Shown piece after piece: positions 3,762-29,922 of a DNA stretch of 32,209 bases. The stretch comes from Acidobacteriaceae bacterium (GTDB taxonomy: Bacteria > Acidobacteriota > Terriglobia > Terriglobales > Acidobacteriaceae). Position 1 is the first letter of the stretch. Every line of letters starts with the position of its first letter. Location of the stretch: positions 1 to 32,209 of the forward strand of contig JBEEGK010000020.1 in NCBI GenBank assembly GCA_041166845.1, in the 5' to 3' direction. The translations under genes were made by a program, and so were the position numbers. The notes under the pieces were generated by a model, which was not told where the DNA came from, did not search any database, and saw only the letters and a list, made by a program, of their open reading frames with translations.

Positions 3762-4337
3762 TCAACGGCTTGCACGCTTTCGGACGGCTTTGAATGTCAT
3801 CTCGTTCGCCGAACTTCCCGTTCTCTTCTTCCACTCAAAAAAAAGGCCCGCATAATTTTGCGTCATATAGTTTTTGGGGTCTACGTTCAGCGAGCGCGCG
3901 GTTTTATCGATCCAGCGCGAGGGACCCTCGATCTCTCCAAAATTGCCGATAGGAGTTTGGTCCACGACGACGTGACCATTGCCATCGCTCCACTCTGCGC
4001 GAAATTTCTCGTAACGGAATGACGGAGAATATCCCCGCGCGTGCAAGATGGCGTCCATCTTCATCCCGTCCTCAACTTTTGTCTCAGTTTCCACGCGCGT
4101 TTTGTGGCGGCCCTCTTTACCCTTCGCTTTGTGAGTCAGCACCCAGTCCGCGCCGTATTTGCGCAACCGCAGCAACTCGCCGCTGTTGGCGAGCTTTGCT
4201 CCTGGGAGATCGTAGAGAGTATTCACCTCGTGCGTGCGTGGAGTGACGAGGCGAAATCCGGCCTCGCGCAACTGTCGCGAAAGCGCGTGCATGTTGTCAA
4301 TCTTGAATTTGATTTCGATTTCTTTGTGTGAGGCCAT
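3762..4337 (-). CDS. CYTH-domain protein (CyaB-like class IV adenylate cyclase / triphosphate tunnel metalloenzyme family)
   Basis: MASHKEIEIKFKI carries the ExExK CYTH signature at the N-terminus, and the protein is about 190 aa. The ORF-track version (3762..4541, TTG start) has a 68-aa N-terminal extension. That extension is out of frame with, and overlaps, the rhodanese read-through segment, so I trimmed it to ATG 4337. An alternative start is ATG 4379-4377, which overlaps the upstream TAA as TAATG. Confidence 0.8.
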   Translation of the reverse strand: MASHKEIEIKFKIDNMHALSRQLREAGFRLVTPRTHEVNTLYDLPGAKLANSGELLRLRKYGADWVLTHKAKGKEGRHKTRVETETKVEDGMKMDAILHARGYSPSFRYEKFRAEWSDGNGHVVVDQTPIGNFGEIEGPSRWIDKTARSLNVDPKNYMTQNYAGLFFEWKKRTGSSANEMTFKAVRKRASR

Positions 4338-4378
4338 GGAAGTAATGGGACTATCTCGTGGTTCGAGACTGAAGGTCA

Positions 4379-5350
4379 TTAATTGAAGGTTGGAAGCTTT
4401 ACTAACTCGTCCGCCGGAACCGACTCGAGAGGCTGTCCAGCCTTGCGCCATGCCGTTAAGCCACCGACGATCACGAGCGCGTTGAATCCTTTTTCTCTCA
4501 GCATAAGCGCCACCCGGGCGCTGGTCGCTTCGCGTGCTCAAGTACAGTACACATAAATATCCTTATCTTTAGGAAGTGCCTTTAATTCTCTCTCCAGGTC
4601 ATTCGGCTCGATGCGAATGGAGCCTTTCATTCGCTGCGCTTTGGCGTCGTAATAACCATGACTGCGAACGTCCACGATTAGGACGTTGTCTTTCTCCTCG
4701 GACTTCAGCCTGCGCGCAAGTTCTTCCACCTGAACTCGCGGCACGACTCGGTAAACCTTGTTTTTCTGATATACCCATAGGCGATAGGCCACGTAGGCAA
4801 CGACCGCGGCAGCGAGCAGGTCTGAAAAAACGTGCCCGGTTGTCTGTATTCCCCGGGTCATCACCATGAGAAAGTCGCGGAAGACGAAGCCGAGAAGGCC
4901 GTAAGTCAGAACGTAAAGGGCTGCTCCACCAAAATCATAAAGAAGGAACTGGCGTGGGCGCATTTTCATGCTGCCCGCGAGCGGCGGCGCCATGGTATTG
5001 AGGCCGGGAACGAACTTGGCGAAAATCAATGTCACTTTTCCACGCTTATAAAATGATTCCGCCGAGTTGAGAATGCAGGCTTCCGGATTCAAAGATAGCT
5101 TGCACAGAAAGCCCAGGAGCGCCCATCCCATCATGCGTCCCATGAAAAACAGCAAAATGTCGCCGAGAATAAATCCGCCAATGGCAATCGCCAGCAGGAT
5201 GGGCACGGATAAACTTCCGGTTGCCGCCGCAGATCCTGCCGCGATCAGGGCCAATGCCGCGGGAAACGGCAGCCCTATAGCCTCGGCGAAGACGGCCATA
5301 AAGATAAACACGTACCCGTGATGTGCAAGCAACGCAAAGAAATGATTCAT
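4379..5350 (-). CDS. DedA/VTT-family membrane protein fused to a C-terminal rhodanese domain. Candidate selenoprotein: in-frame TGA at 4540-4538 read as Sec, giving a 323-aa product. A conventional stop-at-TGA call is 4538..5350 (270 aa).
   Basis: The N-terminal ~190 aa are multi-TM and DedA-like (FAEAIGLPFPA..., FAKFVPGLNTMAPPLAG). The rhodanese first half follows (NVLIVDVRS..., MKGSIRI, DIYVYCT). After TGA the same frame reads AREATSARVALMLREKGFNALVIVGGLTAWRKAGQPLESVPADELVKLPTFN before TAA at 4381-4379. This supplies the missing rhodanese second half. Confidence for the 4538..5350 part as a real gene is about 0.9. Confidence for Sec read-through is lower. Confidence 0.6.
4500..4529 (-). promoter_or_regulatory. 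SECIS-like stem-loop downstream of the in-frame UGA
   Basis: mRNA sequence: UGA GCACGCGAAGCGACC AGCGCC CGGGU GGCGCU UAUGC. The upper stem AGCGCC/GGCGCU is 6 bp (4522-4517 paired with 4511-4506) and the apical loop is CGGGU (4516-4512). A possible 4-bp lower stem (A-U, G-C, C-G, G.U; 4529-4526 with 4503-4500) lies across an internal loop. The loop starts about 21 nt after UGA and is G-rich. This fits my recollection of the bacterial SECIS geometry. Confidence 0.4.
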
Positions 5351-5395
5351 GGAATCGTGAATCGGGTTGCTCCCAGCTAACGAAACAGATGGACG

Positions 5396-6385
5396 CTACT
5401 TCTCTCTCGCCACCACGAATTCCGGAGCCCACAGCAACGCCCGCTTGATCTCGCTATCAGGAAAGGTGCAGATGGAGTTTCGCGCCAGTCCTGCATATTT
5501 TGCGGCGCATGCGTAGGCGGCATCCAGCGAACCATAATGGTTCAGAAGCGCGAGAATCTCTCTGTGGCTCACACTATCGAACATTCTTTCGTTCACAACC
5601 GTCTCGACCAGATCGCGTTCTGCGGGAGTGCAACGCTCCAGCGCGTGAATCACAGCCATGGTTACTTTGCCTTCGCGCAGGTCGCTCGCCACCGGTTTGC
5701 CCAGCACTTTTTCCGAAGCGGTGAGATCAAGCACGTCGTCCACGATCTGGAAAGCCATCCCGAGGTTGCGTCCATATTGCGCGAGATTGTCTTCCTGTTC
5801 CGCAGTGGCGCCCCCGAGAATCGCGCCCATACGCATGCAAACGGCAAACAGGCAGGCCGTTTTACGGAAGATCAAATCAAAATGTTCGTCCAGCGTGATG
5901 AGTTTGCCCAGCTTTTCCATCTGGAGCAACTCGCCTTCGACCATCTGCTGAGTGAGATCAATCAGAGTATCGAGGACGCGAAAACTTCTCTCCTGCAGCG
6001 CAACCTTGAAGGCCTGCATGTAGAGCCAGTCGCCGGCCAGTACGCACTTCGAATTTCCCCACTGTGTATTCGCAGCGGGACGTCCGCGACGCGTTTCCGC
6101 CTCATCAATAATGTCGTCGTGCACGAGGGTGGCTGTGTGAATAATCTCCACTACCGCGCCCAGCTTGATGGCGCCTCGACCTTCGTAACTGAAAAGTTTT
6201 GCGGAAAGCAAAAGAAGCGCGGGACGGATGCGCTTGCCTCCTCCACCACGCAAGTATTCGCCGATCTCAGTGATCGCTTCGACGCCCGAGACGGTGTCGC
6301 GTCCGAACTCACGCTCGATAGCGGACAAGTCCTCGCGCAGCATCTCGAAGATTTCTTTGCCGTTGATGGCGGCGGGTGTGCTCAA
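5396..6385 (-). CDS. trans-polyprenyl diphosphate synthase (IspB/HepT-like; chain length not determinable)
   Basis: First DDxxD motif in LVHDDIIDEAETRRGRP and second in FQIVDDVLD. The 329-aa size is typical of long-chain polyprenyl synthases. Confidence 0.9.
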   Translation of the reverse strand: MSTPAAINGKEIFEMLREDLSAIEREFGRDTVSGVEAITEIGEYLRGGGGKRIRPALLLLSAKLFSYEGRGAIKLGAVVEIIHTATLVHDDIIDEAETRRGRPAANTQWGNSKCVLAGDWLYMQAFKVALQERSFRVLDTLIDLTQQMVEGELLQMEKLGKLITLDEHFDLIFRKTACLFAVCMRMGAILGGATAEQEDNLAQYGRNLGMAFQIVDDVLDLTASEKVLGKPVASDLREGKVTMAVIHALERCTPAERDLVETVVNERMFDSVSHREILALLNHYGSLDAAYACAAKYAGLARNSICTFPDSEIKRALLWAPEFVVAREK

Positions 6386-10083: not shown

Positions 10084-10114
10084 CACTTTTTTCTTCAACA
10101 GCTTAGAGGGACTC

Positions 10115-12106
10115 TTGTATCGCGACCTGGAACGCCAGCTTGCCCAACACATCCGCGACTTTCTGCTGCGAACTTACGACGTTGAACTGCCGAAAATTGT
10201 TATAGAGCAGCCTCCTAAGGTGGAATTTGGAGAGTACGCCCTGCCGCTCGCCTTTGAACTGGCGAAAAAGCTTCGAAAAGCACCACGCAAAATAGCCGAA
10301 GAAATCGTAACCGGAATTGGTGCGATCGAGGGTTTCGAGAAGTTGCAGGTCGCGGGCGCGGGCTACATCAATGCCAGCGTGGACCGCGCCAAGTTTGCCG
10401 CGGCCGTGGCGGCGGATAAGAAGCTCGAGTCCGAAATTTCTTCTGGCAAAATTTTGGTCGAACATTCCAGCATCAACCCCAACAAAGCCGCGCACGTCGG
10501 ACACCTGCGTAACGCTATCCTCGGAGACACTTTTGTCCGTCTGCTGAAGTCGGCAGGGCACGAGGTGGATGTGCAGAACTACATTGACAACACCGGCGTG
10601 CAGGTCGCGGATGTAGTGGTTGGTTTTCTTCATATAGAGCAAAAATCGCGCGCGGAAATCGAGCAGCTCGTCCGCCACCCACGATTTGATTACTACTGCT
10701 GGGATCTGTACGCGCGAACATCCCAGTGGTACGCGCAAGATAAAGAGAATCTCAAACTTCGTTCGCAGACCTTGCACGATTTGGAGCAGGGCAACAACGA
10801 GGTCGCCGCGATTGCCGAAATCATCGCAGTAGCTGTTCTTCGGCGGCACCTCGAGACTATGGACCGACTGGATATCGAATACGATTTCCTGCCTCGCGAA
10901 AGTGAAATTCTAAAACTCCATTTCTGGGATGCTGCCTTTATTCAACTCAAAGAGCGTGGTGTGCTCTCCTTCGAAACGGAAGGTAAAAACAAGGGCTGTT
11001 GGGTGATGCGGCGCGGTGGAACTACCAAATCCAAAACGTCAGACGCGGAGACCGCCCCGAAAGAGTCCGAGCCAGAAGACGACGATGTTGCAGAAGAAGA
11101 TCAGAAGGTCATAGTGCGCTCTAACGGGACCGTCGGTTACGTTGGCAAAGACATTGCCTATCATTTGTGGAAGTTTGGCCTGCTTGGGCGCGACTTCGGA
11201 TACCGCAAGTTCTATCGTTATCCCAATCAGCACGATTGCTGGATTTCCACGATTGATGGTGAGCCGGAGCATCCTCACTTCGGAGACGTCGCGGAAATTT
11301 ATAACGTGATCGACGCCCGCCAGTCAGAAGCGCAGAACACTGTGATTGATGCCCTGCGCGCCCTGCAATACAACCAGCAAGCCAATCATTACACGCATTT
11401 TTCTTACGAGATGGTTGCGCTTACTCCGCGCTGTGCCGCCGAACTGGGTTATCAACTCTCGGACGAAGACAAACTTCGTTCCTACATCGAAGTTTCAGGA
11501 CGAAAGGGTTTCGGCGTGAAGGCAGACGATCTCATTGACCGTCTGATCGCCTCAGCGAAAAGTGAAGTGGATGCTCGACATCCACAGTTGAGCGAGGATG
11601 AGAGGCTTACCATCGCAACTCAGATTGCCATCGGCGCGCTGCGCTATTTCATGCTCAAAGTCACGAAGTCGTCGGTGATCGCTTTCGATTTCAAGGAGGC
11701 CCTGAGCTTCGAGGGCGAGACCGGTCCCTACGCTCAATATGCCGTGGTGCGTGCAAGCAACATATTCCGCAAGGGAGGAATTGATCCCGATCATTTTTCA
11801 GCGGATGTAAACTTTGCGAAATATCTCGCCGGAGAATCCGGCAACGAGATCTGGGAGCTATGGCTGGCTGCGTCGAAAACTTCTTACCTGATTGACCAAT
11901 GCATCAGTACTACCGAACCTGCATATTTAGCGAAACATGCGTTCCAGATGGCGCAGCTTTTCAACGCGTTTTATCATCGCCATCCCATTCTCAATGAGGC
12001 CGCCGAAGAGCGCAGAGACTTTCTGCTGGCAGCCGCGTGGATCGTCCGCCGGGAACTGACCCGTGTTTTAAGTGTGATGGGGATCACCGTCCCCGCAGCA
12101 ATGTAA
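10115..12106 (+). CDS. argS: Arginine--tRNA ligase (long form with an acidic insertion)
   Basis: N-terminal Arg-tRNA-synthetase add-on domain. The HIGH-type motif is SSINPNKAAHVGHLRN. The C-terminal anticodon-binding (DALR) region is PYAQYAVVRASNIFRK...AFYHRHPIL. The start is TTG with a GAGGG Shine-Dalgarno 4 nt upstream. Confidence 0.95.
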   Translation: MYRDLERQLAQHIRDFLLRTYDVELPKIVIEQPPKVEFGEYALPLAFELAKKLRKAPRKIAEEIVTGIGAIEGFEKLQVAGAGYINASVDRAKFAAAVAADKKLESEISSGKILVEHSSINPNKAAHVGHLRNAILGDTFVRLLKSAGHEVDVQNYIDNTGVQVADVVVGFLHIEQKSRAEIEQLVRHPRFDYYCWDLYARTSQWYAQDKENLKLRSQTLHDLEQGNNEVAAIAEIIAVAVLRRHLETMDRLDIEYDFLPRESEILKLHFWDAAFIQLKERGVLSFETEGKNKGCWVMRRGGTTKSKTSDAETAPKESEPEDDDVAEEDQKVIVRSNGTVGYVGKDIAYHLWKFGLLGRDFGYRKFYRYPNQHDCWISTIDGEPEHPHFGDVAEIYNVIDARQSEAQNTVIDALRALQYNQQANHYTHFSYEMVALTPRCAAELGYQLSDEDKLRSYIEVSGRKGFGVKADDLIDRLIASAKSEVDARHPQLSEDERLTIATQIAIGALRYFMLKVTKSSVIAFDFKEALSFEGETGPYAQYAVVRASNIFRKGGIDPDHFSADVNFAKYLAGESGNEIWELWLAASKTSYLIDQCISTTEPAYLAKHAFQMAQLFNAFYHRHPILNEAAEERRDFLLAAAWIVRRELTRVLSVMGITVPAAM

Positions 12107-14201: not shown

Positions 14202-15074
14202 ATGAAAAATTTGCAGATTTTCGCGCTGCTATTGTGTGCATCCGTGAGCCTTGCCTTCGGACAAGACAAAGTTTTCGATTGGACAGCCGCCAACGCAGAA
14301 ACTCTGCAACTCGTGCCAGCTGAATATCAGACCGGCCGTGTCTACCGGCCCGGTCCCGAGGGTGGCAACATCCACGTGGATATTGATTCGGAAAAACCGA
14401 TTACCATCGCTCTCACGCCATTCGATGAGTGGAACGCGGCCTTGCAGAATCCCGAGTACATGAGCCGCATCGAGTGGAGATGTCTTGATCGGCATGTCGT
14501 CAGCGCGACCTACACCTGTGAGTTGCCGCCTAACCGTGCCATGGTTCTTGTGCTACGGGATGAACGGAACGATCACGCAGCACTAACTGGTGTTGACATC
14601 ATTCTGGGGCGCAATGCCCGTCCCTTTTTGCCCGCGAACGACGTTCACATTCAGTATTACAGTTGGACTTGCGTTGACCATTGCCTGCAGCCCGAGTTTC
14701 AGTGGGTACGCCTGGTGAAGGAAAAGTACGCAGTGACTTCAACGCCCAAGATTTACAGCTTGTTGACTCCCGAACGAGACGGACAGCAGCTCAGCGTCAA
14801 GATTAAGTCCGCGTCGCCGATGGTGATTGCCGTGATGTCATCCCAACTGGCCGACAAGGTTTACGATTCCCCGGGAATGATGGCATCAGCATTGTCGAAC
14901 ACTTCCTGCAAGCAGCGCGGCGTGCAGTCCATGAACTTCGATTGCACCTTCAATCTCGCGGACGGTCCGCAATCGCTGATCGTTATGCCGGATGGTCCGC
15001 AAATCTCGCACAAGAAAGCCGAGATCGAGTTGCAGACGGTGAAGTGTGTGGGGAATTGCGATTTGATGAAATAG
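14202..15074 (+). CDS. Secreted hypothetical protein built from two homologous Cys-containing modules
   Basis: Signal peptide MKNLQIFALLLCASVSLAFGQ. There is an internal duplication (aa ~54-161 versus ~194-286) with the same C-x11-C ... C-x3-C pattern in each copy. No family recognised. Confidence 0.75.
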   Translation: MKNLQIFALLLCASVSLAFGQDKVFDWTAANAETLQLVPAEYQTGRVYRPGPEGGNIHVDIDSEKPITIALTPFDEWNAALQNPEYMSRIEWRCLDRHVVSATYTCELPPNRAMVLVLRDERNDHAALTGVDIILGRNARPFLPANDVHIQYYSWTCVDHCLQPEFQWVRLVKEKYAVTSTPKIYSLLTPERDGQQLSVKIKSASPMVIAVMSSQLADKVYDSPGMMASALSNTSCKQRGVQSMNFDCTFNLADGPQSLIVMPDGPQISHKKAEIELQTVKCVGNCDLMK

Positions 15075-15122: not shown

Positions 15123-15650
15123 CTACCGTCTGCGCGATCTAGCCACGGCCTCTTTCGCTTCTTTATCCGCCGTCCTGCGCCGCTCGGTTTCGCGCTTGTC
15201 CCACAGTTGCTTCCCTTTAGCCAGGGCGAGTTCCAGCTTGACCCTGCCGTTTTTGAAATACATGCGTGTCGGGATCAGCGTCTGCCCACGTTGCTGCGTT
15301 TTTCCAATGAGTTTGCGGATCTCCTCCGCGTGCATCAACAGCTTACGAGTACGCAGCGGAGCATGGTTGGCAATGTTCCCGTGCTCATATGGACCAATAT
15401 GACAGTTCAAAAGCCACAGTTCCCCATCTTTCAGCAATCCATAGGCATCTTTGAGGTTAGCCAGTCCTGCGCGCACGGATTTGACCTCCGTTCCGCTTAA
15501 AACTATCCCAGTCTCAAATTTTTCGAGCAAGAAGTAGTTATGAGAAGCGATCCTATTAACAGCAGCGTCGCGCTGTCCGGCGGCGGTCGGGTCGCGCTGA
15601 ACGTTCTTTGGAGGAGCAGATTTCGTCGGATGCGCTGTCTGGCGTGCCAT
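15123..15650 (-). CDS. smpB: SsrA-binding protein SmpB (with a ~30-aa basic N-terminal extension)
   Basis: IASHNYFLLEKFETGIVLSGTEVKSVRAG...LLNCHIGPYEHGN...RTRKLLMH...IPTRMYFKNGRVKLELALAKGK. Confidence 0.95.
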   Translation of the reverse strand: MARQTAHPTKSAPPKNVQRDPTAAGQRDAAVNRIASHNYFLLEKFETGIVLSGTEVKSVRAGLANLKDAYGLLKDGELWLLNCHIGPYEHGNIANHAPLRTRKLLMHAEEIRKLIGKTQQRGQTLIPTRMYFKNGRVKLELALAKGKQLWDKRETERRRTADKEAKEAVARSRRR

Positions 15651-15802: not shown

Positions 15803-15894
15803 CACGCGAGCTTTCGTCTTCTCCAGCGGGTATAAATGAGTAAAGTTTGGGTATTCTTTGCCCTTTGTGCAAGACTGCCTGCGAGGAACCATTC

Positions 15895-18237
15895 ATGAGA
15901 CGCCTGATTCGATTGGCGGCAATCGTCGTGTTGACGCTTTCCTTGGCCGCTGCGGCCATCGCTGAAAGCGCCAAAGCCTTGTACAACGAGGGTAAGGACG
16001 CCGAAGCCCGCCAGAATTATGAACAAGCTTTCGACCTGTACCGGCAGGCTTACGAGCTAAGGCCCACAGATCTTACCTATCGCTCCGCCTATGAACGCCT
16101 GCGCTTTCTGGCAGGCGCCTCGCACGTCCATCGCGGCCAATTGCTGCGGGATGCCGGCAAACTCGAAGAAGCGATGGCGGAGTTCCGCAAGGCAGCGGCC
16201 ACAGACTCGTCGAGTTTCATAGCCCAGCAGGAAATCCGCCGAACCCAAAAAATGATTGACGCTGCCGGGGCCGCGCCTGCTCCGAAGTCATCGAATGTTC
16301 CAGCGACGGGTCTGCAGAAGCGTCTGGACGACGCGCAGGGTCCAGTGGACCTCGCCGTTATTGCGAACATCCCCGTTACTCTTAAAGCGACCGAAGACAC
16401 CAAGGTGATCTACGAGACGATCGGAAAGCTAGCCGGAATTAACGTTCTCTTCGATCCTGACTACACATCGCGACGCATCAAGATCGAATTGAACGGAGTA
16501 TCGCTGGAGGAAGCGCTGCAGATTGTGGCGCTGGAATCGAAGACTTTCTGGCGTCCAGTCACGCCTAACACGATATTTGTTGCCGCCGACAATCCCGCAA
16601 AACGAAAAGATCTGGAACAAAGCGTCATCAAGACTTTTTATCTGGCTAATCTTTCCCAACCGACAGAGTTGCAGGACGTAGTCAACGCGCTCCGGCAGAT
16701 CCTCGAGATCGCCCGCATTCAGCCTCTGCCTTCGCAGGGGGCGATTGTGGTGCGCGGCACTCCAGACCAAGTCGCGCTGGCGCAAAAACTCGTGGGTGAT
16801 CTGGATAAATCGAAGTCCGAAGTCATCGTTGACATTGCCATCATGCAAGTGAGTCGTGATAAAACACGGAATCTGGGCATCAGTCCGCCCACCAGCGCTA
16901 CCGTCTCACTGCAGCCGAATATCAATACGACCACCACAACCACAACGAACGGGACCACGACGACACCCAGCACTACTCCCTCTACCGGCAACGGAATTAG
17001 CCTGAATGCCCTGGGAAATCTTAACGCCACCGACTTTCAAGTCACGATCACACCAGCAAGCCTGACTGCACTTTTCAGTGACAGTAATACCAAGCTCATT
17101 CAAAATCCGCAGATCAGAGCAGTAGATGGACAGAAGGCCTCGCTAAAAATTGGCGATCGCGTGCCGGTAGCGACCGGGTCGTTTCAGCCCGGCATCGGTG
17201 GCGTAGGTATCAACCCTCTTGTTAACACCCAATTCCAGTATCTGGATGTTGGAGTGAATATTGACATCACTCCCAAGGTCCACGCCGGCAGAGAGGTGAC
17301 CCTCAAAATCACAATGGATATCTCGTCGGTGACCAGTCAGGCGAATATTGGCGGTATCAGCCAGCCAATTATTGGCCAGAGAAAAATTGAACATGAAATC
17401 CGACTGAAAGAAGGTGAGGTCAACCTTCTGGGCGGGATGCTGGAAGATCAGCAGATCCGCTCTCTAAGTGGGATCCCCGGTCTGTCGCAGATTCCCATCC
17501 TCAAATACCTATTCGGACAGACCAACGTCGAACACAAAGAAAACGAAATTGTCTTTGTGATGGTCCCGCATATCGTGCGCGGGCAGGAACTAAACGAGTT
17601 GAACCAGACCGCGCTGGATGTCGGCACTGCGGGCGCGATCCAGATGCGTCGCGTGAATCATGCCGCTGTGACGAACTCCACTGATTCTTCATCAGCCACC
17701 ATGCCTCCACCGAATGCGAGCCAGCCGGCCGGACAGCCCCCGGCGGCAGTTTCGCCGAATCAAGGGCCGCAAGTTCCCCCTACGCAAGCTCCAGCTCCTC
17801 AGCCGCTAACTCCGCAACCGGGAGCAGCAAGCTTTGGATTTGATCCTCCGAACATTACCCAGCCGGCGGGTTCAACTTTCACGGTGAACGTAATGCTGAA
17901 TGGGGCTCAGAACGCATACTCGGTGCCGCTACAAGTGAGCTACGACCCAAAGCTCCTGCAGGTAGTAAACGTGTCGAATGGAGGCTTTCTCTCGCAGGAT
18001 GGCCAGCCGGTCGCACTCGTACATCGCGACGACGCCACGAGCGGCACCCTACAGATAACCGCAACCAGGCCTCCGGGCGTTAGCGGAGTCTCAGGACAGG
18101 GAGCAGTGGTCACTTTGACATTTATGGCAAAAGCTAGCGGACAAGGAACGCTGGCAATCTCCAAAGGTGGCGCGAAGGATCCCGGCATGCAGCCTATGCA
18201 GGTGGCAGGCACGGCTGCGACGATCACAATTCAATGA
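15895..18237 (+). CDS. Secretin (GspD/PilQ superfamily) with an N-terminal TPR-like segment, an internal Thr-rich tract, a Pro-rich linker and a C-terminal cohesin-like domain
   Basis: Start at ATG 15895 (MRRLIRLAAIVVLTLSLAAAAIA, signal peptide; GAGGA 7 nt upstream). The ORF-track start at 15847 is probably too long. Secretin core: LIQNPQIRAVDGQKASLKIGDRVP...LSGIPGLSQIPILKYLFG...VFVMVPHIV. C-terminal ~135 aa: FTVNVMLNGAQNAYSVPLQVSYDPKLLQVVNVSNGGFLSQDG...GTLQITATR...GAVVTLTFMAKASGQGTLAI. This matches my recollection of the cohesin (PF00963-like) pattern. Confidence 0.9.
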   Translation: MRRLIRLAAIVVLTLSLAAAAIAESAKALYNEGKDAEARQNYEQAFDLYRQAYELRPTDLTYRSAYERLRFLAGASHVHRGQLLRDAGKLEEAMAEFRKAAATDSSSFIAQQEIRRTQKMIDAAGAAPAPKSSNVPATGLQKRLDDAQGPVDLAVIANIPVTLKATEDTKVIYETIGKLAGINVLFDPDYTSRRIKIELNGVSLEEALQIVALESKTFWRPVTPNTIFVAADNPAKRKDLEQSVIKTFYLANLSQPTELQDVVNALRQILEIARIQPLPSQGAIVVRGTPDQVALAQKLVGDLDKSKSEVIVDIAIMQVSRDKTRNLGISPPTSATVSLQPNINTTTTTTTNGTTTTPSTTPSTGNGISLNALGNLNATDFQVTITPASLTALFSDSNTKLIQNPQIRAVDGQKASLKIGDRVPVATGSFQPGIGGVGINPLVNTQFQYLDVGVNIDITPKVHAGREVTLKITMDISSVTSQANIGGISQPIIGQRKIEHEIRLKEGEVNLLGGMLEDQQIRSLSGIPGLSQIPILKYLFGQTNVEHKENEIVFVMVPHIVRGQELNELNQTALDVGTAGAIQMRRVNHAAVTNSTDSSSATMPPPNASQPAGQPPAAVSPNQGPQVPPTQAPAPQPLTPQPGAASFGFDPPNITQPAGSTFTVNVMLNGAQNAYSVPLQVSYDPKLLQVVNVSNGGFLSQDGQPVALVHRDDATSGTLQITATRPPGVSGVSGQGAVVTLTFMAKASGQGTLAISKGGAKDPGMQPMQVAGTAATITIQ

Positions 18238-18770
18238 TGGATGGTTCCAACAAGGAAGGTCTGAAGGACTCGATTATTTCCGACGATAGTAAATCTATGA
18301 AGGCCGGCGCAAAGAGGCGAAGTGTCGAAAAGATGAGCGGATTCACGCTCATCGAGCTGATCGTGGCCACCACGATTCTGCTGATCCTGACGTCGCTCGC
18401 TTTGCCCATGGCCAGGATCACCATCAAGCGCGAGAAAGAACGCGAACTGCGGCGCGACCTGTGGGAGATGCGAGACGCGATTGATCGCTATAAAGACGCC
18501 GCTGATCGCGGGGCATTTCAGATGAAGGTCGGTTCCGATGGCTATCCGCCCGACCTCGATACTCTGGTAAACGGCGTCAGCGTGAACACCAAGAAGCTGC
18601 GTTTTCTGCGCAAAATCCCGATTGATCCCATGACTGGAAACGCGGAGTGGGGCATGCACTCCATGCAGGACGACCCGAAATCAGATTCGTGGGATGGCAA
18701 CAATATTTTCGATGTATTCACGAAATCACAAGGTACGGCGCTGGACGGAACGCAATATAAAGACTGGTAA
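18234..18770 (+). CDS. GspG-like pseudopilin (prepilin-type N-terminal cleavage/methylation domain)
   Basis: G|FTLIELIVATTILLIL prepilin motif with Glu at +5, then IPIDPMTG, and a C-terminal GT..Y..W. ATG 18234 overlaps the secretin stop as ATGA but would give a 35-aa leader. ATG 18297 (MKAGAKRRSVEKMSG|F) is an alternative start. Confidence 0.8.
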   Translation: MMDGSNKEGLKDSIISDDSKSMKAGAKRRSVEKMSGFTLIELIVATTILLILTSLALPMARITIKREKERELRRDLWEMRDAIDRYKDAADRGAFQMKVGSDGYPPDLDTLVNGVSVNTKKLRFLRKIPIDPMTGNAEWGMHSMQDDPKSDSWDGNNIFDVFTKSQGTALDGTQYKDW

Positions 18771-18782
18771 GTAGAAAATTAA

Positions 18783-19184
18783 ATGTTGAGCAAAAAGAAA
18801 ATCCGGGGCTTCACTCTGATCGAACTGATGGTCGTCATCAGCTTGATTCTGATCTTGGTCTCAGTGGCTGTCCCGGCTTATAACCAGTCCATTTTGCGTG
18901 CAAGGGAGTCCGTGCTGCGACAGAATTTGTTCACTTTGCGCTCAGTGATTTCGCAATACACTTTGGACAAACAAAAAGCGCCGCAATCGCTCGACGACCT
19001 GGTGCAGTCGCATTACATCAAGCAGATTCCCTCCGATCCGATGACCAGCAAAAACGATACCTGGGCAGTAGACCAGGAAGATTCCACGTTGATGTCTCCA
19101 GATCAGCAAGAGGGCGGAATCAACGACGTCCACAGCGGCTCAACCGCAGTCTCCAGCGACGGGACGGCGTATAGCACCTGGTAG
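18783..19184 (+). CDS. GspG-like pseudopilin (prepilin-type N-terminal cleavage/methylation domain)
   Basis: Classical leader MLSKKKIRG|FTLIELMVVISLILILVSVAVP. Also IPSDPMTS and a C-terminal GTAYSTW. 133 aa. Confidence 0.85.
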   Translation: MLSKKKIRGFTLIELMVVISLILILVSVAVPAYNQSILRARESVLRQNLFTLRSVISQYTLDKQKAPQSLDDLVQSHYIKQIPSDPMTSKNDTWAVDQEDSTLMSPDQQEGGINDVHSGSTAVSSDGTAYSTW

Positions 19185-20357: not shown

Positions 20358-22037
20358 ATGCCGGTTGAAACAGAAATTCCTCCTTCGACTTACGCTCCCA
20401 TTCGCGCGCCTCGCGGAACTTCCCTGACCTGCAAAGGATGGCAACAGGAAGCAGCCATGCGCATGCTGATGAATAATCTCGATGAAGAAGTTGGAGAGCG
20501 TCCACGTGACCTGGTGGTTTACGGCGGCACCGGACGGGCCGCCCGCAGCTGGCCGGCGTATCACGCGATTGTGGCCTCGCTGAAAAGTTTGGACGATGAC
20601 GAAACCCTTCTAGTGCAATCCGGCAAGCCTGTAGGAATTTTAAAAACTCACGAGTATGCTCCGCGCGTGCTGATCGCAAATTCGAATCTGGTTGGGCATT
20701 GGTCCAACTGGGAGAAGTTTAACGAACTCGAACGCGCTGGACTCATGATGTATGGACAAATGACCGCGGGCTCGTGGATTTATATCGGCTCGCAAGGAAT
20801 TGTCCAAGGAACATTCGAGACTTTCGCATCGGCTGCAGAGAAACATTTTGGTGGAGACCTGGCCGGCAAGCTGATCGTCAGTGGAGGCATGGGTGGAATG
20901 GGTGGCGCTCAACCACTGGCCGCGACCATGGCTGGCGCGGCGTTTCTGGGGATTGACGTAGATCCCGAGCGTATCAAGAAACGCCTGACAACCGGCTACT
21001 GTGATTTCATGGTTACCACGCTCGATGAGGCGTTGCGAATTCTCAAGAACGCCGTCCGTAAAAAAGAAAATGTTTCTGTCGGGCTGGTGGGAAATTGCGC
21101 CGACGTGATTAACGAGCTCGCGGACCGGGGTGTCGTGCCAGACATTCTCACAGACCAGACCTCCGCTCATGATCCGTTGAACGGATACGTTCCGAATGGA
21201 ATGACGCTGGAAGATGCAATCGCGTTGCGCAAAAGCGATCCGAAGCAGTATGAAGAAAAATCCCTCAACGCCATTGCTCGCCACGTGGAAGGCATGCTGC
21301 GCCTGCAAAAGATGGGCGCGGTGACTTTCGATTACGGAAATAATATTCGTACATTTGCATTCCAGCAGGGCGTGAAGAACGCCTACGATTTTCCTGGGTT
21401 TGTGCCCGAATATATTCGTCCCCTCTTTTGCGAAGGCCGTGGGCCGTTTCGCTGGGTAGCACTTTCCGGTGAACCGTCCGATATCCATGTCACCGATGAC
21501 CTGGTGTTGGAACTTTTTCCCGAGAACCGAATTCTTCGCCGCTGGATTGAGCTTGCGAAGAAACGAATTAAATTTCAAGGATTGCCGGCACGCATCTGCT
21601 GGCTTGGATACGGTGAGCGCGCGCAATTCGGGCTCGCCATGAACGACCTGGTTAAAAAAGGAAAGCTCAAAGCGCCGATCGTCATCGGCCGGGATCACCT
21701 GGACTGCGGTTCGGTGGCTTCTCCCTATCGCGAAACAGAAAGCATGAAAGATGGCAGTGATGCGGTCGCGGATTGGCCCCTTCTGAATGCCATGGTAAAT
21801 ACCGCCGCGGGTGCGTCGTGGGTTTCAATTCACAACGGCGGCGGTGTCGGCATTGGATATTCTCTCCACGCAGGACAAGTTACGGTCGCTGATGGCACGG
21901 AAATGATGGCAAAGAGAATTGAGCGCGTTCTAACGACCGATCCGGGTATGGGGATTCTCCGCCACGTGGACGCTGGTTATGAGCAAGCCAAGGACTTCGC
22001 CGCCGGCAACGGGGTGAAGGTTCCGATGCAAAGGTAG
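20358..22037 (+). CDS. hutU: Urocanate hydratase
   Basis: 559 aa. [41 protein letters not shown], and a [16 protein letters not shown]-type region are typical of HutU. Confidence 0.95.
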
Positions 22038-22055
22038 CTGGTAAACTGCATCAGC

Positions 22056-23435
22056 GTGGGACCGTCTAAAAACAATCCATCGGCAAGCAGCAAACTCTCG
22101 CGCCGCAGGGTAGACAATCCTGAGACTAGCGATGTGCGCACAAAAACGCGTCCTCTGCTGCTGACAAATATCTCTCAACTTCTCACGCTACGCTCCTCCT
22201 CCGGAAAGTCTTCTTCCAGAAACCTAGCCCGCCTCGGAACTGAACTCAGCGATCTCGGCATGATCAACGATGCTGCCGTGCTCTGCATCGGAGGAAAGAT
22301 CGTGTCCGTCGGCTCGAATAAAGAGGCGAGGCGAGATCCTTGGATTTTCAAGAATCGCAAACGACTCTTCGAAATTGACTGCAAAAACAAAGTCGTGCTT
22401 CCCGGCTTCGTGGATTCTCATACTCATCCGGTATTCATGGAACCGCGATTAATCGATTTTGAGAAACGAATTGCCGGCGCGACCTACGAAGAAATTGCCG
22501 AGGCAGGCGGGGGCATCCGGTCAAGTCTCGACGGGGTCCGCAATACAAATAAGAGCGCCCTCGCAGAAAAAGTCGTGGCCGCATTGCACGAAATGGCCCA
22601 ACAGGGGACGACCACAGTAGAAGCGAAATCCGGCTACGGACTTACAGTGGAATCAGAACTGAAGTCGCTGGAAGCAATCCGCGCTGCCGCCAGGCAATGG
22701 CCGGGCACCGTCATAAGCACGTTGTTAGCAGCGCACGTAGTCCCCCACGAATTCAGGGGCCGCTCACCAAACTACGTCGAACTCGTCTGTAGAGAGATGG
22801 TCCCCGAGGCCGCAAGGCGCAAACTCGCTCAGTTCGTGGACGTATTCACTGAGCGCGGCGCTTTCACGCCGGAAGAAACTTCCCAGATATTTGAAGTTGC
22901 GAAACATCACGGACTAGAAGTGCGCGCGCATGTTGGCCAGTTGAGCCAGACGGATTTGCAACCGTTGCTGCGTTTCGATCCCGCGTCATTCGACCACGTT
23001 GACTACGTCAGTGACGCCGACATCAGACAACTTTCACGAAGCAACACGGTGGCCACACTGGTGCCCGGCGCCAACTTTTTTCTAGGATTGAAAAACTATC
23101 CGTCCGCAAGAAAGTTGATAGACGCTGGTGTTGCAGTTGCCTTGGCGACTGATTACAATCCCGGCTCCTCGCCAACTTCCAGCATGCCGTTCGTGATGTC
23201 GTTGGCCTGCACGCAGATGCAAATGTCGCCCGCCGAAGCCATTTCCGCAGCAACATTTAACGGCGCTTATGCGCTTCGATTGCAGCAGCGAAAAGGTTCC
23301 ATCGAGTCTGGTAAAGATGCCGACCTCGCGATATTTGATGTGGATGATTACCATGAAATCGCTTATTGGATTGGGGCCAGCAAATGCGAATTCACAGTCT
23401 TGAATGGAAATCTTGTTTCGAACTTTGTTCACTAG
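22056..23435 (+). CDS. hutI: Imidazolonepropionase
   Basis: PGFVDSHTHPVF, TTVEAKSGYGL, VRAHVGQLS, ALATDYNPGSSP and GKDADLAIFD. The GTG 22056 start gives a ~26-aa low-complexity extension. GTG 22134 (MRTKTRPLLLTNISQLLTL) is a plausible true start. Confidence 0.9.
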   Translation: MGPSKNNPSASSKLSRRRVDNPETSDVRTKTRPLLLTNISQLLTLRSSSGKSSSRNLARLGTELSDLGMINDAAVLCIGGKIVSVGSNKEARRDPWIFKNRKRLFEIDCKNKVVLPGFVDSHTHPVFMEPRLIDFEKRIAGATYEEIAEAGGGIRSSLDGVRNTNKSALAEKVVAALHEMAQQGTTTVEAKSGYGLTVESELKSLEAIRAAARQWPGTVISTLLAAHVVPHEFRGRSPNYVELVCREMVPEAARRKLAQFVDVFTERGAFTPEETSQIFEVAKHHGLEVRAHVGQLSQTDLQPLLRFDPASFDHVDYVSDADIRQLSRSNTVATLVPGANFFLGLKNYPSARKLIDAGVAVALATDYNPGSSPTSSMPFVMSLACTQMQMSPAEAISAATFNGAYALRLQQRKGSIESGKDADLAIFDVDDYHEIAYWIGASKCEFTVLNGNLVSNFVH

Positions 23436-26346: not shown

Positions 26347-26422
26347 TGGCCAGGTAGCTCAGGTGGTAGAGCGCAGCCCTGAAAAGGCTGGCGTCGGCGG
26401 TTCAACTCCGTCCCTGGCCACC
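26347..26422 (+). tRNA. tRNA-Phe (anticodon GAA), CCA encoded
   Basis: Cloverleaf folded by hand. Acceptor GGCCAGG/CCTGGCC, D-arm GCTC-AGGTGGTA-GAGC, anticodon arm CAGCC-CTGAAAA-GGCTG, variable loop GCGTC, T-arm GGCGG-TTCAACT-CCGTC, discriminator A, then CCA. 76 nt. Confidence 0.95.
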
Positions 26423-27190
26423 ACATTTTCAAGCACTTCGATTCGCCCGAAACCCCCAACCTGTTCCGTTCTGTTTCAATAAACAACTCAACCTTGCCCG
26501 CCGGAGTTTGCCTCAGCTTCTCTCGCGCGGTTCAAAAGCGCTCGGCTGTAACTATCCCGTTTCTGAGGCTCTGGACATTGGCGAACTACTAAGAAAAGGT
26601 CACGCAATCGCCGGCGTAGGGCATCGAGCCTGATCAAAAGCTCTGATTCCAGCACCCTGTCGATAGATAACCCCATTCATCCTCTGGAGGGCCGAAATGC
26701 CGACTAGAAACAATGACATTGAGCTCCTTGTCTACTCCGTTATTTCTCCGGGGGGACGTATTTTGCGACTTGTAGCGAAGACGAAATCCAGGAAATCGGT
26801 GGGATCCATGCTGTCGAGCGGACTCTGCAAGAAGAAAGCTACTGGTTTGCCAAGTGGGGAAAGATCCGAGGAGAACTTACTTCGTAGAACGTTCTCATGT
26901 CCAAATCAGAGCTAGCGAACCTCCCGGAATTCCGGAGAGAGTTTGGCAGATGGGACGTCGAAATCCAGTCTTCGTCGGGTCGGAACTGGGGGCGCGACAC
27001 TGCTTATTTGTCTCATCAAGATCTTCAAACTTATTGGCTGGTGAAAGCGCGTGGCCAATCAATGCCATTTCATCCGCAAGAACCACTGGGTCTAGACGTT
27101 TCTTTGAGGCAGCGTCATAAAACATGTTGAATTACCTGCTGTGCAGCATAAAGTAGCCGAAAGCGCCCGAATTTCCATTGACTTCAAAAA

Positions 27191-28684
27191 CTATTTGCTG
27201 CTCACTAGCTTGCCGCAGCATTCGGGCCGAGCTGGCAGGCTTGAGCGATCCCATCCTCCGCCGAGTGCCTGGATGAGAAGCACGGTGTTTGCCATCCGCC
27301 GTCCTAAGATATTGACCGCTGTGACCTCATCCGAGAGTGCAGCACTCTGGGCGGTGATCACCTCGAGGTAACTTGTGACGCCGCCCTTGTAACGAGTCTC
27401 TGAAAGATCGAGCGAATGCTGGGCTGCGACGACTGCTTCATCCTGAACATAGGCCTCGTTCTCGAGGATTCTCACCGCCGCTAAATTGTCTTCCACCTGT
27501 TGGAATCCAGTCAGCACGTTCTCTCGATAAGCAGCGACTTGATAGTCATAAGAGGCACGCGCCTGGTCGTTGAGAGCTCGGCGTCTCCCGCCATCGAAGA
27601 CTGTCTCGATGGCCGACAGCCCCACTGACCATATTCCGCTTGGCCCATTCATAAGTGTCGTGATGGCAGAACTTTCAAATCCTCCGGTAGCGCCCAAATT
27701 GATCAGCGGGTAGTAGGCCGACTTCACAACTCCGATCTGAGCGTTGGCCGACGCTACCCGTCTCTCTGCCGCCGCAATATCCGGACGTCTTTCCAGCAAC
27801 TCTGATGGCACGGAGATGGGGACATGCGGAGGCGGGGTCGTAAGAGGCAGGGGCCGCAGGTTGAACTCCGCCGGCGGTTTCCCAATCAGGATTGCTACCG
27901 CGTGTTCGTATTGCGCGCGCAGTACGCCCACATCAATCGCCGCAGCTCGGGTCGTTTGCAGTTGGGTCTTTGCTTGTTCAACTTCCACCTCCGAAGCAAT
28001 GCCTCCCTGGAAGCGGCTTTCATTCAACTCCAGTGCCTGCTCGTACTGCTTCACTGTTGAGTTCAGGAGCTCTTCCTCGGCATCCAGGCTGCGGGCCTGA
28101 AAATAATCGACGGCTAGATCCGCGTGCATGCTCAGATTAACTGTCGCCAGATCTGCCGCACTGGCTTGTGCTTGCTCCCGATAGGACTCGACGTTTTTTC
28201 GAACGCGACCCCAGACGTCAGCCTGGTAGGACACACTGACCGGCAGTACAAAGTCGTTGTAGGTGGCGCCACGCAAGAGTGAGCTACTTGGACTATTACC
28301 GGAAATGCGGGTTCGAGTCGCTGATGCCCCTGCGGTCACCGTTGGGTAGTAGTCAGCTCGAGAGTAGCGTAGGACGGCGCGAGCTTGCTGGAACTGGGCT
28401 TCCGCAGCTTTTAGATTCTGATTGGATACATTGACCTGAACTTCAAGCGCATCCAGTTGCGGATCCTGGAATATCGTCCACCATGCACCGCCAAGATTCT
28501 GGTCATTAGGCTGCGCAGGCTTCCAGTTCCCTACTTCTTTATATGCAGGAGGAGTCGGTACCGCTGGCGCGTGGTACTTTGGCCCAACCGCGCATCCCGT
28601 GAACTGCAGTGCTGCGATCGCTATCAAAACACGTTTGGCCGTTTTCCCTGAGCTTGTGAAATTCAATTTTCGGGGTAGCTTCAC
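27191..28684 (-). CDS. RND efflux outer-membrane factor lipoprotein (NodT/OprM family)
   Basis: Lipobox ALQFTGC|AVGPKYHAP and two TolC-like repeats (ADYYPT..., SAYYPLINL...). The GTG start overlaps the adaptor stop as GTGA. Confidence 0.9.
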   Translation of the reverse strand: MKLPRKLNFTSSGKTAKRVLIAIAALQFTGCAVGPKYHAPAVPTPPAYKEVGNWKPAQPNDQNLGGAWWTIFQDPQLDALEVQVNVSNQNLKAAEAQFQQARAVLRYSRADYYPTVTAGASATRTRISGNSPSSSLLRGATYNDFVLPVSVSYQADVWGRVRKNVESYREQAQASAADLATVNLSMHADLAVDYFQARSLDAEEELLNSTVKQYEQALELNESRFQGGIASEVEVEQAKTQLQTTRAAAIDVGVLRAQYEHAVAILIGKPPAEFNLRPLPLTTPPPHVPISVPSELLERRPDIAAAERRVASANAQIGVVKSAYYPLINLGATGGFESSAITTLMNGPSGIWSVGLSAIETVFDGGRRRALNDQARASYDYQVAAYRENVLTGFQQVEDNLAAVRILENEAYVQDEAVVAAQHSLDLSETRYKGGVTSYLEVITAQSAALSDEVTAVNILGRRMANTVLLIQALGGGWDRSSLPARPECCGKLVSSK

Positions 28685-29913
28685 TTGATATCTCCCGGCA
28701 ACGTTGCCTGAACAATTTGGACTTGCTGACCGGACACAATCGAGTCAGGTGGATTAATAATGACCTTATCGTCCGGCTTGATGCCGGAGACAATCTCTAT
28801 CTGGTTGCCGAAATCATGCCCGGGAGTCACGGCGGTCAGTACGACTTTCCCGTCCTTCACAATTCCTACCCGTAACCCTTCGGTCCGGAAGATCAGACTA
28901 TTAACCGGAAGGAGAAAGGTGGAGGCCTGCGTTGGAATCGCCAGATGGACCTCCGCATAGGAACCCGTGAGCAGCGTGCCGGTCGGATTGTCCACATCAA
29001 TTTCAATGAGCAGAGTACGAGTTGTGACGTTGATGTCATTGGCGGTGCGTACTAGTTTCCCTTGAAATTTGCGGTCTGGAAACTCAGTGAGACTGAGGTC
29101 GGCTGTCATACCGACCTTGACTCCCCGCGAATATTCCTCGGGAACGTTCACGTAAACACGCAGTTTTCCAGGTTGAGCGATGTGGAACAGATCGGTTTTC
29201 ACACTGCTACTGCTGCCAGAATTGATGAGGTCGCCGATATCGGTGTTGCGCGCTGTAATCACTCCGTCGAAAGGAGCGTAGATCTTTTCGAAAGATACCA
29301 GCGCTGAATACTGCTCCACGGCTGCCTTGTCAGCTTCCACAATTGCTTTATTGGCGTTGTAGGTGCCGACCGCGTTGTCAACGTCCTGTTGCGCTACCGC
29401 GTTGCTCTTCAAAAGTCCCTGATAACGAGTCTTGGTAATGGAAGCGAGCTCAAGATTTGCCTGCGCGGTTAGCAGGTTGCTGCGCGCTTGCTGCAGTTGC
29501 TGATCCACTTCCGGCGTTTCGATGACAGCCAGCAACTGGCCTTTCTTAACGTGTGCCCCAATATCGAAGTACCATTTCTTCAGATAACCATTCGTGCGAG
29601 CGTAGATGGGGGAAGTAATGAATGGTTGAACGTTTCCAGGCAAGATGATTTCATCGGCTGGAGCTGTTCGTTGGGGCGACACAACCGACACTGCGGGGAG
29701 GGCCGCTTGAGCCGTTTCCATACGTAGAGTTGTAGTGGCTTTGACGCGGGACCAGATGCCAGAAACCAGGAGGGCAGCTACCGCAATCACTGCGAGTGCC
29801 AGGACAATCCAGGCTTTGCGTGACCGCTTCCGCGCGCCCACATTGTTCAATGGAGGTGTGAGTTCACTCGCTTGTCTATCTTCTATTTGAGGCAACATAA
29901 AATATCTCTCCAT
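28681..29913 (-). CDS. RND efflux periplasmic adaptor (membrane fusion protein)
   Basis: N-terminal TM anchor. Lipoyl/hairpin region: NGYLKKWYFDIGAHVKKGQLLAVIETPEVDQQLQQARSNLLTAQANL. Beta-barrel/MP region: IYAPFDGVITARNTDIGDLI. The alternative start MLPQIEDRQ is 5 codons downstream. Confidence 0.9.
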   Translation of the reverse strand: MERYFMLPQIEDRQASELTPPLNNVGARKRSRKAWIVLALAVIAVAALLVSGIWSRVKATTTLRMETAQAALPAVSVVSPQRTAPADEIILPGNVQPFITSPIYARTNGYLKKWYFDIGAHVKKGQLLAVIETPEVDQQLQQARSNLLTAQANLELASITKTRYQGLLKSNAVAQQDVDNAVGTYNANKAIVEADKAAVEQYSALVSFEKIYAPFDGVITARNTDIGDLINSGSSSSVKTDLFHIAQPGKLRVYVNVPEEYSRGVKVGMTADLSLTEFPDRKFQGKLVRTANDINVTTRTLLIEIDVDNPTGTLLTGSYAEVHLAIPTQASTFLLPVNSLIFRTEGLRVGIVKDGKVVLTAVTPGHDFGNQIEIVSGIKPDDKVIINPPDSIVSGQQVQIVQATLPGDIK

Positions 29914-29922
29914 GGCTCCTTG

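Follow-up and report, generated by a model that had tools for sequence, protein, structure and literature searches.

A 32,209-nt stretch of DNA from an Acidobacteriaceae bacterium (contig JBEEGK010000020.1 of assembly GCA_041166845.1, positions 1-32,209 of the forward strand; hereafter the window) carries on its minus strand a gene for a membrane protein of the DedA family in which codon 271 is an in-frame TGA. Comparison with related loci makes us highly confident that this UGA is recoded as selenocysteine (Sec) and that the gene is a genuine selenoprotein gene, the predicted product of which joins an N-terminal DedA/VTT membrane domain to a C-terminal rhodanese domain with a C-x-U motif (Table 1). 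The evidence comes from the continuity of the rhodanese domain across the TGA, from the conservation of the TGA and of the frame behind it in relatives, and from a conserved RNA hairpin that resembles a bacterial selenocysteine insertion sequence (SECIS).

The open reading frame (ORF) at 4538-5350 (minus strand) encodes 270 residues, ends in ...DKDIYVYCT and is closed by the TGA at 4540-4538. Beyond this codon the frame stays open for a further 52 sense codons, AREATSARVALMLREKGFNALVIVGGLTAWRKAGQPLESVPADELVKLPTFN, until it reaches a TAA at 4381-4379. Within the 323-residue conceptual product, Pfam recognizes a VTT_dom at residues 30-154 and a Rhodanese domain at residues 209-303 (model positions 3-101 of 102), and the latter therefore straddles the TGA. 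If the TGA is taken as a stop, 203 nt separate the gene from the CYTH gene that follows (ATG at 4334), compared with 37-58 nt for the remaining gaps in this row of minus-strand genes; with read-through the gap is 44 nt. An earlier reading of the window, made from the sequence only, had proposed that the TGA splits the rhodanese domain of a DedA-rhodanese ORF and that a stop would leave a gap of about 200 nt, and each of its sequence statements (ORF ends, TGA, TAA, domain span) was verified here. Since 52 open codons after a stop arise by chance with a probability of about 8% ((61/64)^52), the open frame by itself is weak evidence, and the case is decided by domain continuity and comparative data. 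Public gene calls end the product at residue 270 and name it ‘VTT domain-containing protein’ or ‘membrane protein DedA’. Metagenome gene callers place a 41-residue ORF with a GTG start within the read-through part (6471-6596 in L171, 1441-1566 in L173; 4379-4513, minus strand, in the window), a call that is spurious.

Six independently assembled contigs, from five or more different samples, encode the 270-residue product, and all five of them that were read at the DNA level have an identical TGA and downstream frame. A protein search covered about 5.8 billion proteins. The best 120 matches included roughly 60 clusters with a length of exactly 269-270 residues, each with ..YCT at its end and with 67-92% identity, and about 55 full-length proteins of 323 residues that carry YCTC(A/V)R(E/D)ATSARV and hence a Cys at column 271. 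At the DNA level, codon 271 is TGA in 78 of 80 species-representative Acidobacteriota/Terriglobia genomes (TGC and TGT occur once each) and in all but one of 80 metagenome contigs; counted by locus, about 81 of 82 metagenome loci have it. Over all related Terriglobia/Terriglobales loci, the count is 153 for TGA, 10 for TGC or TGT and zero for TAA or TAG, and each TGA form stays in frame to the C-terminus ...KLPTF(S/N/A). TGA-type forms are also present among representatives with only 32-43% protein identity, and a metagenome scan seeded with Cys forms recovered almost only TGA forms. Over codons 283-323 the proportion of synonymous differences (pS) is 0.68 and that of nonsynonymous differences (pN) is 0.145; the resulting pN/pS of 0.21 is close to the value of 0.16 for the codons upstream of the TGA, which argues that the tail is translated and constrained. 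Synonymous change in this tail is nearly saturated.

The DedA-rhodanese fusion family as a whole is large. Among 1.84 billion cluster representatives, 8183 match with E <= 1e-3, and 221 of these reach E <= 1e-30. About 33 of the best 150 representatives end at ..YC[TSAVD] and are counted as Sec forms, and about 65 run to full length and show YCxCPNEx[ST][SA]A; at 50% clustering Sec forms account for about one third of the representative clusters of the family. Three homologues in the protein collection (P0126, P0130 and P0158) are out of frame where they cross the TGA region (…LLYLSARSDQRPGG…), which probably reflects frameshifts in their assemblies and not biology. The sequence-only reading had cited a rhodanese motif Y-C-x-C-P-x-E-A-S/T-S-A-R, and full-length homologues indeed carry YC[TSA]C(P N E or A R E/D)x[ST][SA]AR with Cys at column 271. 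It had further looked to uninterrupted homologues with Cys in this column, which are present among the best 120 matches and at 10 loci at the DNA level, and to a TGA at the same codon in relatives, which the 153 loci provide together with a constrained frame downstream. Of the outcomes it had named as damaging, a decaying pseudogene finds no counterpart in the data, where no further decay is seen and the tail is under purifying selection, and an erroneous A in the TGA is countered by the presence of this A in all six contigs. Its selenoprotein interpretation is thus supported on each of these points.

A candidate SECIS hairpin lies shortly after the UGA, with its stem starting 16 nt and its loop 21 nt downstream. 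In the RNAalifold consensus, GCGCC pairs with GGCGC around a CG(G/U)GU loop. The codons that encode this element are nearly devoid of synonymous variation: among 140 unique TGA forms, Ser277 is AGC in 99%, Ala278 is GCC, Val280 is GTG and Ala281 is GCG in 100%, and Arg279 is CGG or CGT only. Synonymous entropy is about 0 at codons 277-281, compared with 1.3-2.0 bits at other four- and six-fold degenerate codons of the same alignment, and pS drops to 0.26 over codons 272-282. All five stem pairs can form in 118 of 118 unique Sec forms, compared with two of 10 Cys forms (L163 and L164, the closest to Sec forms); the other eight retain three or four pairs because they code the S-A-R-V-A peptide by other synonymous codons. 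Likewise, the folding energy of a 27-nt segment spanning the hairpin averages -10.7 kcal/mol in 132 unique TGA forms and ranges from -3.5 to -6.2 kcal/mol in three Cys forms (L045, L074 and L093). Judged from these alignments, the RNA-level constraint is confined to TGA forms.

A further pair flanking the core stem is formed by the third bases of codons 276 (Thr) and 282 (Leu), and among forms in which residue 282 is Leu covariation is seen here: ACC..CTG occurs 47 times, ACG..CTC nine times and ACT..CTG twice, six cases are mismatched, and the unpaired combinations ACC..CTC and ACG..CTG are both absent (Fisher's exact p = 1.3e-10, uncorrected for phylogeny). The ACG..CTC cases are found in several sequence subgroups, and the length of the helix in the family is 5-7 bp. 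Two Sec forms with only 32-36% protein identity, L175 and L176, share the TGA and a hairpin core of GAGCGCC-CGGGC-GGCGC. Bacterial SECIS elements have been described as stable stem-loops that directly follow the UGA and have a guanosine in their small apical loop (PMC1088965), and the hairpin matches this description in position, stem and small G-containing loop. Synonymous choice is also nearly frozen at Thr270, Arg273 and Glu274 (codons at 4541-4543 and 4529-4534). These positions are unpaired in the predicted structure, so pairing fails to explain their conservation, which may reflect constraints on the UGA context or the spacer. The SECIS-like hairpin was no part of the prediction made in the sequence-only reading.

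The distribution of Cys forms adds an evolutionary dimension. They are interspersed with Sec forms: L163, L164, L166, L167 and L168 each have a Sec form as nearest neighbour, at 70-87% identity, and only L045, L074 and L165 make a small Cys group. Three Cys forms with TGC or TGT, namely L163 (P0005), L164 (P0012) and L093, retain the full hairpin or four of its five pairs. With identities to the nearest Sec form of 83-87% (L163 and L093) and 79% (L164), they have the appearance of recent switches from Sec to Cys, made before any decay of the SECIS had set in. Those Cys forms that are nearest to Sec forms keep an intact hairpin and the rest have a decayed one, and this graded decay in scattered lineages is consistent with repeated Sec-to-Cys switches that were followed by a loss of SECIS constraint.

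Several observations weigh against Sec insertion or limit the evidence for it. The Fisher test concerns a single covarying flanking pair and ignores phylogeny; the five core stem pairs are invariant and for that reason yield no covariation. In the window itself the flanking pair is a C.U mismatch (ACC..CTT), and the helix is therefore 6 bp there. When the 86 nt that follow the UGA are folded as a single sequence, the result is no more stable than for shuffled sequences (z = +1.95); we dropped this as a test because a 17-nt hairpin in GC-rich coding sequence cannot stand out. An Rfam search of the window at gathering thresholds returned tRNA-Phe only and no family at the hairpin. Moreover, no selA, selB, selD or tRNA-Sec was found in the 32-kb window by ARAGORN and by tblastn with E. 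coli SelA, SelB and SelD, and the same searches of the flanks of relatives (2.14 Mb) detected no sel gene or tRNA-Sec; over window and flanks together, the only match was a generic one to a GTPase. A tblastn search of the loci with three Occallatibacter riparius selenoproteins (AhpD-like, deiodinase-like and FdhA) gave no match.

The literature lends partial support to the view that this lineage is able to use Sec. Selenoproteins occur in Acidobacteria (PMC1794560), O. riparius, an isolate of the Acidobacteriota, is listed as a Sec-utiliser with the three selenoproteins named above (PMC12013277), and Sec-type hydrogenases have been reported in metagenome-assembled genomes of Acidobacteriota (PMC13582414). 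A general reassignment of UGA does not apply, since TGA is a working stop both in the window, where three genes stop at TGA and their frames then stay open for only five to eight more codons, and in relatives, where it is a common stop. Stop usage in the window is unusually rich in TAG (22 main ORFs: TAG 12, TAA 7, TGA 3), and the long stop-to-stop frames of related loci use the three codons about equally (TAG 374, TGA 356, TAA 296).

Four other explanations of the TGA were considered. That it is a sequencing or assembly error, or a nonsense mutation specific to one strain, might be suggested by the single base that separates TGA from TGC or TGT; the occurrence of the same TGA in six contigs from different samples and in 153 related loci refutes this idea for practical purposes. 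It could also be a true stop, leaving a 270-residue DedA protein with a vestigial half-rhodanese and a tail that is either a remnant or a small ORF (GTG at 4513, 44 residues). All public gene calls end at residue 270 and some call the 41-residue ORF downstream, as this explanation would have it, but purifying selection downstream is as strong as upstream in the face of near-saturated synonymous change, the tail is conserved in forms that are only 32-36% identical, TGA is found in 153 loci without a single TAA or TAG, and half a rhodanese fold cannot fold alone, as judged from the Pfam span (209-303) and the structural model. We consider a true stop most improbable.

A subtler possibility is that the UGA and hairpin are read as Cys by a SelB-dependent tRNA of the selC* type (tRNA-ReC or tRNA-Cys with a UCA anticodon), which would yield a C-x-C protein. 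Such tRNAs have been described (PMC7609411; PMC13582414), and a conserved TGA, a SECIS and Cys homologues fit Sec and Cys insertion alike. They are found in a minority of lineages, however, whereas Acidobacteriota are documented with ordinary selenoproteins, and it is hard to explain why a costly signal would be kept over more than 150 lineages when a change from TGA to TGC or TGT achieves the same and has happened repeatedly; Cys insertion is very improbable in our view. Finally, the truncated 270-residue protein and the full-length protein might both be made and used, with the UGA acting as a switch that responds to selenium status. Termination and Sec insertion compete at UGA as a general property of bacterial recoding, and the ACT codon that precedes the UGA in 98% of forms suggests a tuned UGA context. 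Yet the truncated product shows no sign of a function, and Cys forms, which make the full-length protein only, repeatedly replace Sec forms in the same synteny, which indicates that the full-length protein is the functional unit; we therefore rate dual output as quite improbable. Recoding of the UGA as Sec remains the explanation that we favour.

Given Sec insertion, the position of the residue within the rhodanese domain is informative. A phmmer alignment with sequences of the Protein Data Bank (PDB) places residue 271 on the catalytic Cys (CGGGFRS in 6mxv, U-AREATS in the window protein), and Cys269 lies at the end of a strand, two residues before it. Sec271 would thus replace the catalytic nucleophile, and Cys269 would be an additional neighbouring thiol. 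The sequence-only reading had put the TGA in the active-site loop; we can refine this to the canonical position of the catalytic Cys. The Cys orthologue P0005, when modelled with AlphaFold2 (mean predicted local distance difference test score 81), has a strand at residues 264-268 that is followed by a short loop and a helix at 272-286. A Foldseek search of the PDB with this model matched single-domain, GlpE-like rhodaneses only (template modeling score 0.65-0.80 relative to the target) and gave no DedA match, there being no DedA structure in the PDB. The best NCBIfam match is NF041203, ‘rhodanese_LYCAU, rhodanese-related (seleno)protein’, with 85.2 bits where 115 are required; this model gives 78-92 bits for five other DedA fusions, all of them under the cutoff.

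The N-terminal domain shares the GD...GR motif, a glutamate equivalent to E39 of E. coli YqjA (E23) and two proline-containing hairpin motifs with the DedA superfamily (YqjA/YghB/DedA, UptA, PetA). Matches to NCBIfam DedA and UptA models have E values of 1e-10 to 1e-13, yet their scores are far under the cutoffs; for the undecaprenyl-phosphate flippase equivalogs NF052604 and NF052605 of UptA they are 24.9 and 41.3 bits compared with cutoffs of 250 and 300. The importance of E39, D51, R130 and R136 in YqjA is taken from a preprint (10.64898/2026.09.20.752871). Unlike YqjA, the window protein lacks this full charged set, with Ala in place of D51, Lys112 in place of R130 and Asn118 in place of R136. 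A feature of the fusion family is a CX8C motif in a loop of the DedA domain, with the consensus C[RK][IL]S[LI]xP[DE]xC in nearly all of the representatives inspected, down to about 30% identity. Its co-conservation with the C-x-U (or C-x-C) site suggests, from sequence, that the four residues form a thiol/selenol relay or a metal site. Cys83 aligns next to W102 of YqjA, a residue on the cytoplasmic face, and the N- and C-termini of YqjA are on opposite sides of the membrane, with the N-terminal helices periplasmic (10.64898/2026.09.20.752871). A cluster of Lys and Arg residues follows the last membrane helix of the window protein. Together with homology to YqjA, whose topology has been mapped by experiment, this cluster suggests under the positive-inside rule a cytoplasmic location for the CX8C loop as well as for the rhodanese domain.

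Based on these features, we propose that the hairpin at 4522-4506 acts as a SECIS that recruits SelB with Sec-tRNA(Sec), as in the standard bacterial system, and that the ribosome would then continue for 52 codons past the UGA to produce an inner-membrane protein of 323 residues that carries its DedA/VTT domain at the N-terminus and its rhodanese domain at the C-terminus. Sec271 could be the nucleophile that takes up sulfane sulfur, selenium or an oxidised substrate, and Cys269 might resolve it as a selenenylsulfide, possibly with relay to the CX8C pair. Whatever it is that the DedA domain moves, across the membrane or within it, this chemistry might be coupled to its movement or might regulate it. 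Both the chemistry and the coupling to DedA draw on conservation and on an inferred topology, and we hold this functional part with much less certainty than the recoding itself. The options considered for the role of the protein, all suggested by its sequence features, are a sulfur or selenium transferase, a reductase with a selenenylsulfide intermediate and a redox regulator of the DedA domain. A more specific scenario, in which the fusion protein, with its CX8C and C-x-U motifs, is a dedicated membrane system for the uptake or handling of a chalcogen species such as selenite or thiosulfate, with DedA delivering the substrate and the Sec-rhodanese reducing it or carrying it onward at the cytoplasmic face, is speculative and seems to us unlikely; the role in sulfur and selenium trafficking that the sequence-only reading put forward is likewise speculative.

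Taken by itself, the rhodanese module is of a kind already known among predicted selenoproteins, in agreement with the sequence-only reading, which counted rhodanese-related sulfurtransferases among the reported bacterial selenoprotein families: NF041203 is catalogued as ‘rhodanese-like form 3, CxU’ (PMC13188914, PMC9312934). The exemplar of this family, TKB26178.1, is a 150-residue protein that begins with a hydrophobic N-terminus and contains the motif IVLYCAUPNEYTSARLA. BLASTP aligns the Sec positions of the two proteins (YCT[U] with YCA[U]) at 36% identity over 108 residues, so that LYC-A-U-PNEYTSAR in the exemplar corresponds to VYC-T-U-AREATSAR in the window protein, and divergent DedA fusions carry YC[TSA]-U-PNEA[ST]SAR. 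In contrast to NF041203, which comprises single-domain proteins of about 126-150 residues (model length 126 positions), the window protein has 323 residues, an N-terminal DedA domain and a co-conserved CX8C. The exemplar is probably exported, given its signal-peptide-like N-terminus, whereas the rhodanese of the window protein is probably cytoplasmic. By sequence, the DedA fusion with CX8C is a differing architecture that falls under the NF041203 threshold.

A precedent for a Sec-containing rhodanese that is fused to a membrane thiol-relay module is TsoB, a rhodanese/DsbD fusion-like selenoprotein (rhodanese form 5, NF045694; PMC13188914). TsoB differs in its partner, which is DsbD rather than DedA, and in its UxxxxU motif with two Sec residues, and the comparison extended to the rhodanese fold only. 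The YeeE/YedE family, a putative mercuric transport protein and SaoP are precedents from other families for selenoproteins that are membrane transporters (PMC13188914). Our literature search found no mention of a DedA or VTT selenoprotein and no described DedA protein with a rhodanese domain, and the 2022 and 2026 catalogues of prokaryotic selenoproteins list no DedA fusion; the sequence-only reading likewise knew of no described DedA-fused selenoprotein. The DedA homologue of Cupriavidus metallidurans CH34 that it linked to selenite sensitivity could be traced to a passage in PMC8679861, which cites Ledgham 2005 for a DedA protein linked to selenite uptake in this strain.

The gene is widespread in Terriglobia, which are major soil bacteria, and databases currently truncate to 270 residues what is predicted to be a selenoprotein of 323 residues; its recognition would add a membrane-integral DedA fusion to the list of prokaryotic selenoproteins. 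The functions of the DedA superfamily are still being worked out and include the flipping of lipids and of undecaprenyl phosphate (C55-P), ion homeostasis and a selenite phenotype. That one clade combines a CX8C loop with an obligatory partner of the redox or sulfurtransferase type hints that some DedA proteins handle thiol-reactive or chalcogen substrates. If the chalcogen-handling scenario were true, it would be the first functional assignment to tie the DedA superfamily to sulfur and selenium chemistry, and the fusion would be a candidate for a specific prokaryotic selenium uptake and trafficking system, which according to a 2026 review has not been identified (PMC13188914). The frozen synonymous sites, the covarying closing pair and the stepwise decay of the hairpin could also make this family a useful training case for predictors of bacterial SECIS elements and selenoproteins.

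Table 1. Features of the predicted DedA-rhodanese selenoprotein gene; positions are those of the window
Feature	Position	Strand	Details
Predicted DedA-rhodanese selenoprotein gene, 323 codons	4379..5350	-	ATG 5350, predicted Sec-UGA codon 271, TAA 4381-4379; 323-residue Cys orthologues in matching neighbourhood; tail pN/pS 0.21
DedA/VTT membrane domain, residues 30-154	4889..5263	-	PF09335, 35.1 bits vs cutoff 33.9 (marginal)
CX8C motif in DedA loop, predicted cytoplasmic	5075..5104	-	Cys83 TGC 5104-5102, Cys92 TGC 5077-5075; invariant in alignments, co-conserved with C-x-U/C
Rhodanese homology domain, residues 209-303	4442..4726	-	PF00581, 45 bits vs gathering cutoff 22.2
Cys269 (TGT), C-x-U partner, candidate resolving thiol	4544..4546	-	Invariant in alignments
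In-frame TGA, predicted Sec codon (U271), catalytic-Cys position of rhodanese active-site loop	4538..4540	-	Alignment to 6mxv and TKB26178.1; TGA in 153 loci
UGA context and spacer, synonymous sites frozen	4523..4543	-	Thr270 ACT 98%, Arg273 CGC 94%, Glu274 GAA 91% (140 TGA forms)
Candidate bacterial SECIS hairpin	4506..4522	-	5' stem GCGCC 4521-4517, loop CGGGU 4516-4512, 3' stem GGCGC 4511-4507, plus A4522-U4506

The gene order MetRS-TatD-YajQ-polyprenyl synthetase-[DedA-rhodanese]-CYTH-GAF/HD-GYP is common to Sec and Cys forms. A polyprenyl synthetase gene lies directly upstream at 100 of 134 loci and the CYTH gene downstream at 108 of 148 (3762-6385, minus strand, in the window); the Cys forms L166-L169 and two divergent Sec forms that were examined have different neighbours. 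The polyprenyl synthetase is an intriguing neighbour, as some DedA proteins flip undecaprenyl phosphate. This synteny may equally be explained by inheritance among close relatives, and we draw no functional conclusion from it because the loci are all fairly closely related and some Cys forms and divergent Sec forms have other neighbours.

Elsewhere in the window, the region 15847-19184 (plus strand) encodes a secretin of the type II/III secretion family that has TPR repeats at its N-terminus and, unusually, a cohesin domain at its C-terminus; the two small ORFs that come after the secretin contain prepilin N-methylation motifs. SmpB is encoded at 15123-15650 (minus strand), urocanase and an amidohydrolase of histidine utilisation at 20358-23435 (plus strand) and tRNA-Phe(GAA) at 26348-26423 (plus strand), and an efflux operon of the OEP/HlyD/AcrB-type RND family at 27191-32097 (minus strand) runs toward the window end. 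Two ORFs are without a Pfam match, one of 290 residues at 14202-15074 (plus strand) and one of 248 residues at 10103-10849 (minus strand); the latter, which overlaps with ArgRS encoded on the other strand, is probably no gene.

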